Assembly (NCBI GenBank): GCA_043779265.1
Contig: JAYWEM010000180.1
Location: 1 to 32,267, forward strand
Direction: 5' to 3'
Source of the DNA: a bacterium
GTDB lineage: Bacteria; Eisenbacteria; RBG-16-71-46
DNA length: 32,267 bases
In this document: piece after piece, positions 27,001-32,267 of the stretch
Position numbering within the stretch: the first letter of the stretch is position 1
How the letters are laid out: every line of letters starts with the position of its first letter
Position numbers: made by a program

Positions 27001-30000
27001 ATCATGTCGCGGCGCTCGAGGTGGGGCAGGCGCTCTATTCGCCCATGTGCCGGCCGGATGGCGGCATCGTGGACGACCTGCTCGTCTATCGGTATGCGGG
27101 CCACCACATGGTGGTGGTGAACGCCTCGAACATCGCGAAGGACCTGGCCTGGATGCTGGAGCACAAGCCGGCCTCGGTCACGCTGACGGATCGATCCGAC
27201 GAGACCGCGCTCCTCGCCGTGCAGGGGCCGCGCGCCGCGGATCTGCTGAGACCGCACGTCCCCGCCGAAGCCCTGGAGCTCGGCTACTATCGCTTCACGC
27301 TCGCCACGCTGTTCGGTGCGCCAGTGACGCTCTCGCGCACGGGCTACACGGGCGAGGATGGTTTCGAGATCTACGTCGCTCCCGAGTATTCAGATGCGGT
27401 GTGGCAGGGCGTGACGGCCGCGGGTCAGGCGCACGGGCTCGAACTCGTCGGACTCGGGGCGCGCGATACGCTGCGACTCGAGATGGGCTACATGCTCTAC
27501 GGCAATGACATCACGGACTCGACCACGCCTCTCGAAGCCGGTCTCGGTTGGACGGTGAAACTCCAGAAGGGTGAGTTCCACGGCAGCGAGGTGATGCTGA
27601 AGCAGAAGGCCGAGGGCTTGAAACGCCGACTGGTCGGATTCCAACTGGAGGGTCGCCGTGTCCCTCGCCACGGGATGCCCATCTTCGCCGACGGCCGACA
27701 GGTGGGAGAGGTGACGAGCGGGACCTACAGTCCGACGCTCGAACGTCCCATCGGGATGGGCTATGTCGAGAAGGCGCATGCTGCCACGGGCGGATCGCTC
27801 GAGATCCATGCGGGCAGCAGTCAGCTCGCCGCGCGGGTGACCGCGCGGCCGTTCTACACACGCGGTTCACATCGTTCGTGAGTGCAAGGAGGCCGGAGTG
27901 ACGTATCCCGATGATGTGCGCTACACCCGCGAACACGAGTGGGTCCGAGAGGCCTCAGGCGTTCTCACGATCGGCGTGACGAGTTATGCCACCGACCAGT
28001 TGGGCGATGTCGTCTTCGTCGAGCTGCCGGATGCGGGTCGCTCGATCGAATCCGGCAAGCCGTTCGGCGTGGTCGAGGCGGTGAAGACCGTGAGCGACCT
28101 CTACGCGCCGATTGCCGGTGAGGTGGTCGAGGTCAACGCCGCACTCGCCGACAATCCCGCGCTGGTGAATCAGGACCCTTACGGCGAGGGCTGGATGATC
28201 CGTGTCCGCCCGAGCGATCCGACGGCCATCCAGTCCCTGCTCACGGCTGCGGACTACGAGAAGCACGTGGAGGAATCGCACGCGTGAGCCTCCCGTTCGC
28301 GCACGGAACCGCCAGCACCAGAGCACCGCGCCCTGCCCGCGTGGCGCGGGCGTGATGCTGGCCGTGGCAGACGTTTCACGGGTGGAGGCGGCCGAGACGG
28401 TCACCTGGCAGTACGACCCTTGGGCGGAGAAGCCGCAGGTCGCGTGGATCGCGGCGATCGCCGCGCTGCTGCTGTGCGTGCTCGTCGTGAACCTCGAAGA
28501 GTCGTTCCTCGTCAGCGTCGGACTGTGCCTCTTCTGTGTCGGCGCGTTCGCGCCTGCGCTGTCACGCGTCGAGTGCCGGATCGACCCGAATGGCGTCGCA
28601 CGCCGGGGTTGGCTCGGCTGGGAGCGACGTGACTGGAGCATGTTGCGTCGGATGGACCGGCTCCCCGCGGGAGTGCTCGTCTCGCCCTACAGCAAGCGCA
28701 ATCTCCTCGACAGTGCGCGCGGGATGGTCCTGCCGATGCCCGCGAACCGTCGCGAGGAACTGACGCGTCTCGTGACCGATGCACTGGAGCGATCACGATG
28801 ACCGATGCGCCCGCGTTCTTACCGGAGGATCAGGCCCTACTCGAGCGCCTCGCGGACCGCGTCGTCGAGTTGCGCATCGAGACGGCGGCGATCCTGACGC
28901 TCGAGACCGCCAAGCCGATGTCGTTCCTCGCCTCGCAGGCGATGGTCTTCTTCGAACCGATCGTGCAGTCGCTGTTCCGATTCACCGACTACCAGCGACT
29001 CTCGCGCCTGCTCGAACGGCGTGACACGCTCGAGTCGCTCACTCAGCTCATCGAGGTCCGCGCCGAGGCACGCCACCGTGCTCGTCGAACCCCGGCAGCC
29101 TCCGACCGACAGGAACCCCAGTGAACCCCGAGATCATCCCGAAGAACATCCGCTCGATCCTCGCGACCGACTGCGGGTCGACGACCACGAAGGCCGTGCT
29201 CATCGAGCGGCGTGAGGAGGGTTTCCGCCTCGTCACCCGTGGGGAGGCCCCGACGACCGTGGAGGCGCCCTTCGAGGACGTGACGCGAGGCGTGTTGAAC
29301 GCGGTGAAGGAGGTCGAGGAACTCCGCGGCCGTCGGCTGCTCGACGGCGAACGCATCCTGACGCCGCAGCAGGGCGAGGACGGCGTCGACCTTTACTTGT
29401 CGACATCGAGCGCGGGCGGCGGCCTCCAGATGATGGTCTCGGGCCTGGTCATGCAGATGACCGGCGAGAGCGCGCAGCGAGCTGCGCTCGGCGCGGGCGC
29501 CATCGTGATGGATGTCATGGCGCTCAACGACGGGCGTAAAGATCACCAGAAGATCCAGCGCATGCGCCAACTGCGCCCCGACATGATCCTGATCTCGGGT
29601 GGCACCGACGGTGGCGACGTGAAGCGAGTCTGCGAGATGGCCGAGCTCCTCGCCGCCGCGGACCCCAAGGCCCGGCTCGGAGCGGGCTACGAGCTTCCGG
29701 TGATCTTCGCCGGCAACAAGGATGCGGCGCCGTTCGTCGTCGACCTGCTCGCCAAGAAAACGGCGCTTCTCGTGGTCCCGAACCTGCGGCCCAAGCTGGA
29801 ACAGGAGAACCTCCAGCCCGCTCGCGACGCGATCCATGACCTGTTCATGGAGCACGTCATGGCGCACGCGCCCGGATACAAGAAGCTCATGACGTGGACG
29901 CCCGTGCCGATCATGCCGACACCAGGTGCCGTCGGGCTCATCATCGAGAAGGTCGCCAAGCGAGATGGTATCGCCGTCGTCGGTGTGGATATCGGCGGGG

Positions 30001-32267
30001 CGACGACCGACGTGTTCTCGGTCTTCCGTGTGCCGGAGAACGAGGAGACCGTGTTCAACCGCACGGTCTCGGCCAACCTCGGCATGAGCTACTCGGTCTC
30101 CAATGTCATGGCGGAAGCCGGCATCGAGAACATCCTCCGCTGGGTGCCGTTCCCGGTCGACGAGGTCGAGCTTCGCAATCGGATCAAGAACAAGATGATC
30201 CGGCCCACGACGATCCCGCAGACACTCGACGATCTCGTGATCGAGCAGGCGATCTGCCGAGAGGCGCTCCGCCTCTCGTTCGAGCAGCACAAGTCGCTGG
30301 CCGTGGGACTCAAGGGCAAGCAGACGGCACGCGACATCTCCGACACGTTCGATCAATCGGCGTCGGGCTCGACGCTCGTCAACCTGCTCGACTTGGGGCT
30401 ACTGGTCGGCTCCGGCGGCGTGCTCTCGCACGCGCCGCGCCGCGCTCAGTCCGCACTCATGATGGTGGATGCGTTCCTGCCCGAGGGCATCACCGAACTG
30501 GCCGTGGACAGCATCTTCATGACGCCGCAGCTCGGCGTGCTCTCGACCGTGCATGAGGAGGCTGCGACGCAGGTGTTCGAGCGCGACTGCCTCATCCTAC
30601 TGGGTCCGTGCGTCGCGCCGATCGGTGCAGGTAAGCCAGGTCAGCGTTGTGTGTCGGTGGAGGTGAAGCTCCCCGACGGCAAGACGGAGACTCGAGAGGT
30701 CCCCTTCGGCGAACTCGTCCTGTTGCCCATCCCGGCGGAAGGGCGCCTGCAACTGACCGTGACGCCCGACCGCTCGTTCGACATGGGAGCCGGCAAAGGC
30801 AAGCCCGTCTCGCGCGACGTGCGCGGCGGGGTTGTGGGACTGATGATCGACACGCGCGGCCGTCAGCCGTTCGTGCTGCCGACCGACTCGAGCAAGCGGA
30901 TCGATCGCCTGCGCGCCTGGAACCGTGCGCTCTCGTTGTATCCGCGGGAGGTGTGACATGGCGCATTCCTACACGCCGGGGTTGAGGGTCACGTCTCACG
31001 CTCTCGTCCGCCGCGAACGTCGTCTTCCGCTCAAGGGCGAGGTGCTGGTCCAGGCCGGCGCTCAAGTCGAGCCGGACACCGTCGTCGCCAGGACGCAGCT
31101 GCCCGGCAACGTCCAGACGGTGAACGTCGCAGCGAAGTTGTCCGTGGATCCGGCCAAGTCGGCCGAGACGCTGCTGCACCCGCTCGGAACGCTGGTCAAG
31201 AAGGGACAGCCGATCGCGAGTGCCAAGAGCCTGTTCGGACTGATGAAGAGCCAGATCGAGTCACCCGCCGATGGCACGATCGAGAGTGTCTCCTCGGTGA
31301 CCGGCCAGCTCATCCTGCGTGAGCCGCCCATCCCCGTCGAAGTGCAAGCCTATGTGCGAGGTCGCATTTCCGAGGTGCTGGCGGGCGAGGGCGTCGTCGT
31401 CGAGTCGCAGGGTGCCCTGATGCAGGGCATCTTCGGCGTCGGGGGCGAGACCTTCGGCCCGATCGCCGTTGCGGTGAGCCGCGCGGATGAGGTGCTGGGG
31501 CCCTCGCATCTCAAGCCGGAGCATCGCGGTGCCGTGGTGGTGGGCGGCGCGTACGTCGCGCATGACACGCTCATGCGAGCCAAGGAGATCGGGGTCGCGG
31601 CCGTCGTGGTCGGTGGATTCGATGATCACGACCTCAAGCGACTGCTCGGCAAGGACCTGGGCGTCGCGATCACCGGGCAGGAGGACCTCGGCTTCACGCT
31701 GGTGCTGACCGAGGGCTTCGGTCACATCCCGATGGCCGATCGGACGTTCCGCATGCTGCAGGACCATGTCGGTCACGTGGCCTCCGTGAGTGGCGCGACT
31801 CAGATCCGCGCCGGCGTGATGAGGCCGGAGATCCTGATCCCGCGCGATGATGCCGGCGCTGCCAGGCCGAGCGAGGACTCCGAAGGCGGTCTCGAGATCG
31901 GAGCACTGATCCGCGTGATCCGTCAGCCTTACTTCGGTCGCCTCGGCAAGGTAGTCGAGCTGCCGCCCGAGCTGCAGGCGCTCGACAGCGAGGCCCGTGT
32001 GCGCGTGCTGCGCGTCGCGTTCGAGGGCTCACAGGAGTCCGTGCTGGTGCCTCGCGCCAACATCGAGCGGATCGCCGATTGAGTCGATGGCTGTGGCCCT
32101 GTTCGGGCCGCGGCCAGTTCCACGAGAGCTGCGACTGTGACTTCCGTGGCCGTTCTCGGCCGTCTGACACCCGTCAAGCCATTTGAGAAGGTAACCCTGC
32201 TGGGTATCGTCAAGCCGTTTGCGATGTCACCCGGTTCTGGCGGTCTTCTGGCGCCCGACCTCGTAGA

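Follow-up and report, generated by a model that had tools for sequence, protein, structure and literature searches.

The window analyzed here is a 32,267-nucleotide stretch of a genome of the phylum Eisenbacteria and comprises the whole of contig C180. Four genes, designated Z, A, B and C, lie at its 3′ end, and gene order in relatives points to a continuation as genes D, E, F and G on contig C195 (locus L001). The features of the two contigs are as follows.

C180, 24395-28287, forward strand: genes for a tdh-like dehydrogenase, a kbl-like aminotransferase, gcvT and gcvH; lineage-specific context, outside the module
C180, 28355-28801, forward strand: Z, ~148 aa, with two hydrophobic N-terminal helices and a small beta-rich domain
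C180, 28798-29124, forward strand: A, 108 aa, belonging to no family and probably helical
C180, 29121-30956, forward strand: B, 611 aa, an ASKHA (actin/Hsp70-fold) ATPase of the GlmL/PF13941 family
C180, 30958-32082, forward strand: C, the 374-aa partner of B
C180, 32083-32267: contig end, by synteny probably continuing to contig C195
C195, 191-1390: D, matching PF20539 (370 bits); signal, FN3-like domain, TM, DUF6754 Rossmann domain predicted inside, TM
C195, 1400-2050: E, 216 aa; six TM, predicted N-in
C195, 2052-2885: F, 277 aa; TM, Rossmann domain predicted outside, TM
C195, 2882-3550: G, 222 aa; six TM, predicted N-out

A preliminary description of this locus had listed A (108 aa), the ATPase B and C (374 aa), and these were confirmed as three abutting or overlapping ORFs of 108, 611 and 374 aa, with A overlapping both the stop codon of Z and the start of B. 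The same description was wrong in counting seven genes, as Z is located directly 5′ of A and brings the number to eight. The start codon of Z was picked from an alignment, within an ORF that is open from position 28202. In 66 of 75 loci, a set that counts some genomes twice, Z was the immediate upstream neighbor of A, and it was present in 51 of the 54 genomes with the module and in 0/7 of those without it. Z is, therefore, the eighth gene of the module.

Genes D to G were found on C195 and outside the window, as previously reported. In a sample of 31 relatives' loci, chosen for long contigs, C led straight into D to G in 22, consistent with the earlier statement that this order prevails in Eisenbacteria; 2 to 8 kb of other genes separated C from D to G in five loci, and D was not seen in the remaining four. 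A physical join of the two contigs could not be upheld: their ends had no common terminal 15- to 60-mer, no likeness to the spacers of relatives was detected at the gap, and, of the 328 pieces, 32 were listed and none of these bridged the two contigs. The linkage of C180 and C195 is, hence, proposed from synteny.

Co-occurrence was assessed with counts that include kin genomes and, hence, are not independent: B and D agreed in 61/61 genomes of the phylum, both being present in 54 and neither in 7 (joint absence can follow from linkage in one locus or from assembly gaps), and C and D agreed in 198 of 201 genomes of a second phylum, with both in 47 and neither in 151. The exceptions in the second phylum, where gene order is circularly permuted (DEFG-ZABC), were G091, which had D and F and no match to C, and G173 and G175, which had C without D or F. 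For other groups, C was detected in 10/10 D-bearing genomes, lying outside the D locus in six of these. The wide distribution of the ATPase in the phylum (an earlier count was 37 of 41 genomes) was borne out by its presence in 54 of 61, with full-length orthologues at 66 to 83% identity.

Individual genomes contained 1 to 9 matches to D as against 1 or 2 B genes. All sampled genomes of one class (81/81) had 2 to 6 matches to D, and the two of these examined for C had one copy each. Regions around D copies located away from the ATPase had the full D-E-F-G set and no A, B or C in 20/20 cases, and the D paralogues of one genome sorted into separate clades. By these gene counts, one motor may serve several quartets. 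Tandem or stand-alone quartets, as previously noted, were observed in records whose titles name Zixiibacteriota, Ignavibacteria and other groups. The F family contains 5,021 clusters at 50% identity and the D family extends to at least 615 genome stretches. D was detected in 0/14 model genomes, an absence that may explain why the module has been overlooked. No match to D was found on plasmids, a metagenome scan for archaeal occurrence returned a single 1.7-kb contig, and look-ups of the clusters yielded no taxa.

The assignment of B as a GlmL/MutL-like protein was confirmed by a match to PF13941 at 425 bits (cut-off, 27). Motifs D17-G19STTTK, D290-G292GATTD and G430SGG were invariant in 61/61 aligned sequences, and the phosphate-1, phosphate-2 and adenosine motifs are intact. 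The module is putatively ATP driven. A C-terminal extension of ~120 aa is absent from two reference proteins of 461 and 465 aa. Scores against more specific models were below their cut-offs, namely 227 bits for NF040745 (GlmL; equivalog cut-off, 475), 216 bits for NF040744 (Or-4; cut-off, 600) and 12 bits for TIGR04491 (diol dehydratase reactivase alpha, PduG; cut-off, 400), as was the score for TIGR01319. B and its fused paralogues formed a group that excluded the one GlmL and the one Or-4-like sequence compared. There was no ABC-family match in A, B or C.

Partner protein C has a barrel-sandwich-hybrid arm, a conserved LFG hairpin tip and a KOW-like end, and may carry a swivel-like domain, the sequence matches for which are weak (RraA; E, 0.27). 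Natural fusions were detected in both halves of the module. Five fusions joined B to C and eight joined F to G, two of the latter being from named Planctomycetes. The model of an F-G fusion was confident and packed (pTM, 0.89). The D-E model, for which the folding vehicle had an artefactual linker, did not pack confidently (pTM, 0.54). P0282 and P0283 were rejected as D-E fusions, their linkers looking out-of-frame, and served only as the folding vehicle.

The earlier TM-Rossmann-TM models were borne out on homologues of D and F. The FN3 domain also ascribed to D was not, as D had no Pfam match to FN3 and the label rests on the NCBI names of homologues. D and F have the same predicted order of helices and strands and align in one register to common templates (1kjn, 4i5i, 4j16_C and 6lrf), an indirect likeness. 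Counts of Lys and Arg place the D domain inside and the F domain outside and give an N-in orientation for E and N-out for G, with CARDB and CBM_4_9 insertions located in predicted outer parts. This combination of a common predicted fold on opposite sides of the membrane and opposite topologies of E and G suggests that (DE)(FG) is an inverted repeat. Profile-profile comparison with hhalign found no homology between D and F or between E and G (probability, <2%), and a hairpin test of E against G was negative. Among 15 pairs of hairpin repeats compared, only G1-G2 stood out (probability of 31%, above 20 shuffles), while G3-E1 and E1-E2 barely exceeded their own shuffles.

Fold searches were dominated by Rossmann domains and barely covered E and G; the best Z scores for the D and F models, 9.8 and 10.2, were near background for this common type. 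PDB sequence searches detected nothing below an E value of 0.019, Foldseek gave no match at E ≤ 0.001, and no B12-binding or dehydratase-beta domain was present among the 50 fold matches listed. In the ESM Atlas, G fell in unnamed clusters only, E had no usable named match and no models were present. Conserved polar residues are located in or at the membrane helices of all four proteins (D368 and K371 of D, R186 of E, H256 and N267 of F, and E32 and R203 of G).

From what was observed (the genes present, how they co-occur and in how many copies, the fusions and the intact motifs of the ATPase), together with the predicted folds and topology, we consider the chances about even that the eight genes encode an undescribed transporter energized by an ASKHA ATPase within a shared motor. 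D-E-F-G would be a membrane unit, putatively a tetramer, derived from an ancient inverted repeat (DE)(FG), with the Rossmann-type domain of F outside, that of D inside and the oppositely oriented six-helix bundles of E and G between them. Z-A-B-C would be the shared cytoplasmic motor, docked through Z and A, which would anchor it to the membrane. B and C would act in a manner resembling a reactivase of B12 enzymes, with ATP powering either the release of a tightly bound ligand from the inner domain of D or a resetting of the unit. A single motor would be shared among several paralogous quartets, an arrangement known from group II ECF transporters. If transport occurs, import is the favored direction because the variable add-on domains are predicted to face outward. 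None of the neighboring genes hints at a substrate.

Two other readings retain an undescribed eight-gene membrane machine. D-E-F-G could be a membrane-bound enzyme or energy-conserving complex, working on a transhydrogenase-like principle, for which B-C is a dedicated reactivase or assembly chaperone, exchanging a cofactor on D, such that ATP only maintains the enzyme; we regard this as unlikely, although it is the likeliest of the alternatives. The family background of B is one of reactivation (PMC4682846 and PMC7674605), the many invariant polar residues of D fit an enzyme equally well, and the folds of D and F are similar to Rossmann domains that bind nucleotides (transhydrogenase dIII, Z of 8 to 9, and RCK/KTN). 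However, there was no Pfam or NCBIfam enzyme match for D to G, the fold matches do not exceed unrelated rows, and a transporter or receptor would better account for a catalytic domain that has a twin outside the cytoplasm and for five paralogues that are stable yet have no recurring metabolic neighbors. ASKHA ATPases also function as ratchets or scaffolds, as in Hsp70 import motors and PilM/FtsA, and the module could be a machine for transmembrane signalling, protein export or envelope assembly in which B acts likewise and a macromolecule is sensed or retained by the outer domains. These outer domains are large and variable (FN3-like, Ig [Big_9], PQQ-type propeller, CARDB and CBM), the module is near universal with a fixed copy number in one class, and an inversion does not require small-molecule transport. 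This reading is improbable in our estimation, as no recurring gene for a substrate, pilin, regulator or output was found beside the quartets and the D proteins of L015, L141 and L147 have no ectodomain at all.

The remaining alternatives concern the soluble genes. In the window's phylum, the module is flanked by gcvT-gcvH(-gcvP) on one side and an LplA-like gene on the other, and C has a weak match to Biotin_lipoyl (E, 5e-4), as might be expected if the module assisted glycine cleavage or lipoate metabolism and C were the lipoyl carrier. The lysine at the hairpin tip is, however, not conserved (K, N, R, T and others occur, and the tip is LFG), and gcvT/gcvH were absent from 19/19 regions of the second phylum and 20/20 extra-quartet regions; this very improbable reading is largely refuted. 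The PF13941 match could alternatively mean that B is a typical GlmL/Or-4 reactivase, acting on a soluble B12 enzyme, with the membrane genes as unrelated neighbors, and B12-binding domains do occur in this genome. Against this, and in agreement with the preliminary description, glutamate mutase E and aminomutase (PF09043) were each over the cut-off in 0/61 genomes of the phylum, with positive controls that were detected, and B scored below the NCBIfam cut-offs. The distribution of methylmalonyl-CoA mutase differs from that of the module: in the second phylum, 17 of the 47 genomes with the module gave no match to this mutase, and 149 of the 151 without the module had it. For diol dehydratase (PF02286), the window's own genome, the sole one searched, gave no match, the control also being silent. 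As far as these three mutase families are concerned, this reading is refuted, and its overall probability is minimal. As B tracks the membrane genes, glutamate mutase and aminomutase were not found in the 61 genomes and methylmalonyl-CoA mutase does not follow the module, B is not a mutase reactivase, which supports the earlier proposal of an undescribed membrane machine.

No paper describing the module was found in the open-access literature, and GlmL or MutL is not mentioned in the main text of PMC5898192. The closest known counterparts of B are GlmL/MutL, which serves glutamate mutase, and Or-4, which serves ornithine aminomutase; they belong to the same ASKHA family and have the same phosphate-1, phosphate-2 and adenosine motifs. 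B has only 26 to 31% identity to these shorter proteins and, unlike them, has no mutase client, its partners being C, A, Z and the membrane quartet. If our interpretation is correct, many genes annotated as 'glutamate mutase L' in mutase-free genomes would be re-annotated. In diol/glycerol dehydratase reactivase, an ASKHA ATPase plus a swiveling domain frees bound cofactor from a partner subunit (PMC7674605); B and C may reproduce this principle as two separate proteins, with the membrane complex as the likely target.

The likeness of D and F to NAD(P) transhydrogenase dIII, sirtuin and Trk/Ktr RCK domains is generic (Z of 8 to 10 and rmsd of 3 to 5 Å over 110 to 150 residues) and not above unrelated Rossmann rows. 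RnfA/E and NqrD/E are pairs of ~210-aa six-helix subunits of opposite topology, which E and G resemble in size, predicted helix number and predicted opposite topology. Rnf/Nqr also have a barrel-sandwich hybrid domain in a soluble subunit, as in C (a weak match to RnfC_N, with NQRA_N over the cut-off in a fused paralogue); the module differs in having an ATPase, and in D to G there was no Rnf/Nqr membrane-family, flavin or Fe-S match at E ≤ 1.

Known primary transporters use ABC, P-type, rotary or AAA+ motors, and we know of no reactivase-type ASKHA ATPase that drives a small-molecule translocator. That the module represents a new class of primary active transporter, in which an actin/Hsp70-fold ATPase, sister to the reactivases of B12 enzymes, drives a pseudo-symmetric translocator of four subunits that carries equivalent binding domains on either face of the membrane, a single motor being common to many specialized quartets across many little-studied bacterial phyla, is a tentative proposal with slightly less than an even chance of being correct. 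In group II ECF transporters, one energizing module is shared by several unlinked membrane modules (PMC4820897 and PMC7755397). Several membrane modules per motor are likewise indicated here by gene counts, while the ATPase is ASKHA rather than ABC and the membrane part, in which no EcfT or S-component family match was detected, would be a four-protein unit.

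The window (contig C180) closes with four coupled genes, termed Z, A, B and C:

28355-28801, + strand: Z, an open reading frame coupled to A
28798-29124, + strand: A, an open reading frame with no family match
29121-30956, + strand: B, an ATPase of family PF13941 (425 bits)
30958-32082, + strand: C, with weak barrel-sandwich matches only

C also gave weak PDB sequence matches to RraA and NusG. The membrane-protein quartet D (DUF6754), E, F and G forms the first genes of C195, another contig of the same genome, where the next genes encode an LplA-like protein and a peptide ABC transporter. 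The window's contig and C195 do not overlap, and no bridging contig was found among the public contigs listed. Each module gene is present in one copy in this genome, and the closest named homologues are entries titled Candidatus Eisenbacteria. At 27898-28355, gcvPA and gcvPB are missing, as in loci L002, L005 and L010, while most relatives have both between gcvH and Z; gcvP of this genome lies on contig C181 (G000:C181:1243-3396). From their translations, we take 15740-21442 to be consecutive MacB/FtsX-like ABC permease genes and 21483-24341, after these, to be a uvrA-like gene.

The phylum sample (61 genomes) gave 54 B loci, and linkage was assessed in 31 of them, selected for long contigs. 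C ran directly into D-E-F-G in 22 of the 31 loci and was separated from it by an insertion of 2 to 8 kb in 5; D was not seen in 4, of which 2 end at a contig edge. B and D were present together in 54 genomes; in the other 7, which span five genera and are 93 to 96% complete, neither was found. The co-linearity proposed in the preliminary description was upheld in most loci of this phylum, but its count of seven genes was not, as Z, detected in 51 of the 54 module genomes and in none of the 7 module-less genomes, is an eighth. Joint absence of B and D in single-locus genomes can be explained by linkage alone; a better case is G037 (3 contigs), which has no D match whereas its four family members have two D copies. 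In a second phylum (201 genomes centred on G061), the gene order was D-E-F-G-Z-A-B-C; D was found in 48 genomes and C in 49, with 47 having both, 151 neither and 3 discordant. All 10 D-bearing genomes of other groups had C, which lay outside the D locus in 6. The module genes thus form one unit. These tallies, which take in unpublished genomes (G015 in the first sample, G197 and G247 in the second), are given without P values because kin are not independent.

A second, divergent F copy lies between G and Z at L143:12495-13277 and L146:12456-13236, and in one lineage (L134, L135, L138, L139, L140 and L142) up to five genes are inserted there, with no Pfam match for the four tested. At L114:13270-20715, two modules converge head-on and B is divided between the two; an inversion or a misassembly may be the cause. 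Genome G063 carries a lone C (L152:9991-11115), which precedes a tolQRAB-pal-like cluster and has no further gene of the module within 9 kb; in G052, some 5 kb separate C from microcompartment-like genes (shell proteins, aldehyde dehydrogenase; L035:1577-3794) on its downstream side. Both sets of labels were read from sequence.

Genomes held 1 to 9 D matches versus 1 or 2 B genes. In the class of G062, 2 to 6 D matches, mostly five, were detected in 81/81 genomes, and C was single in the two examined for it. Of 20 regions surrounding D copies that lie elsewhere than the ATPase, every one contained a complete D-E-F-G, with no A, B or C and no recurring neighbours. Not all D genes sit in an intact quartet: in G078 and G085, D is apart from E-F-G. 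In a midpoint-rooted FastTree of 82 sequences, D copies of one genome fell into separate clades, each common to other genomes.

B is a member of PF13941, yet it fails membership of GlmL, Or-4 and PduG, scoring under the NCBIfam cut-offs for these and for the GlmL subfamily. Annotated GlmL proteins are 26 to 31% identical to B and stop before its C-terminal extension, and a tree of 24 sequences places B together with its fused paralogues, away from the single GlmL and the single Or-4-like protein included. The ASKHA motifs of B are invariant in 61/61 aligned sequences, which makes an active ATPase probable. Five genomes have a second, fused B-C protein of 848 to 917 aa, with the C arm duplicated and the KOW-like end absent; B is therefore tied to C. 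In these loci (L022 to L026) the duplicated part is the barrel-sandwich arm and no Z or A lies nearby; all five genomes have 4 to 9 D matches.

The quartet proteins folded were homologues of those of the window's genome: P0307, a natural F-G fusion (pLDDT 89.6, pTM 0.89), and P0283, a record that reads through from D into E by way of an artefactual linker (pLDDT 79.7, pTM 0.54). The D and F models have a common element order (TM helix, helix, six strand-helix units, TM helix) and align in the same register to templates 1kjn, 4i5i, 4j16_C and 6lrf. Their matches to 1kjn (F 52-237 to 6-156, Z score 9.8, rmsd 3.4, 138 aligned; D 53-211 to 6-151, Z score 9.4, rmsd 3.7, 134 aligned) suggest a common Rossmann fold and nothing beyond. 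The charge bias is opposite: 4.4 Lys+Arg right behind the first TM of D predict an inside domain, and 3.3 ahead of the first and 3.1 behind the last TM of F predict an outside one. E and G each have three short-plus-long helix hairpins, with basic even loops in E (4.1 and 3.1 versus 0.5 to 1.1) and basic odd loops in G (2.0, 3.0 and 2.8; N-terminus 0.06). The modelled F-G linker holds one additional hydrophobic helix, as the predicted F/G topology requires. Predicted outer-face additions are CARDB in F, CBM_4_9 in E and FN3-like, Ig or propeller heads on D; F also has a HEAT-repeat insertion, uninformative on sidedness. From the shared order and register, opposite charge, linker helix and outer insertions, the operon reads, in predicted folds and topology, as an inverted repeat, (DE)(FG). 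Profile comparison of D with F and of E with G showed no homology, which counts against this reading; the fold searches bore mainly on D and F.

The most likely reading, to which we give an even chance, is that the quartet acts as a translocator carrying a predicted binding domain on either face, with Z-A-B-C as a motor shared by several quartets. Conserved polar residues in the quartet's membrane helices would suit a pathway. Z and A may anchor the motor to the membrane, as hydrophobic helices and the fixed gene order suggest. B-C might free ligand from the inner domain of D or reset that domain, by analogy with dehydratase reactivases, described in PMC7674605 as an ATPase plus swivel acting by subunit swap.

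A membrane enzyme served by a dedicated reactivase is a rather unlikely alternative, and a signalling, export or assembly machine is more doubtful still. A lipoate accessory is highly improbable, as the glycine-cleavage and LplA genes nearby are peculiar to the lineage and C has no conserved carrier lysine. That B is an ordinary reactivase is scarcely credible: glutamate mutase E exceeded the cut-off in 0/61 genomes (three weak matches fell below it) and lysine/ornithine aminomutase was found in 0/61, both searches being positive in control records. Methylmalonyl-CoA mutase does not track the module: among the second-phylum genomes, 149 of the 151 lacking the module have it, and searches of the 47 that carry the module did not find it in 17. 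These results bore out the earlier claims that glutamate and amino mutases are lacking and that B is not a mutase reactivase.

No description of the module was found in open-access literature on DUF6754, PF13941, 'glutamate mutase L' with membrane and allied subjects. With no mutase client among the families tested and with B and D agreeing in 61/61 genomes, the module is, as first proposed, an undescribed membrane machine rather than a mutase reactivase; it is real, widespread and composed of eight genes. Although it has no ABC ATPase, its arrangement of one motor with many quartets would liken it to the group II ECF transporter.
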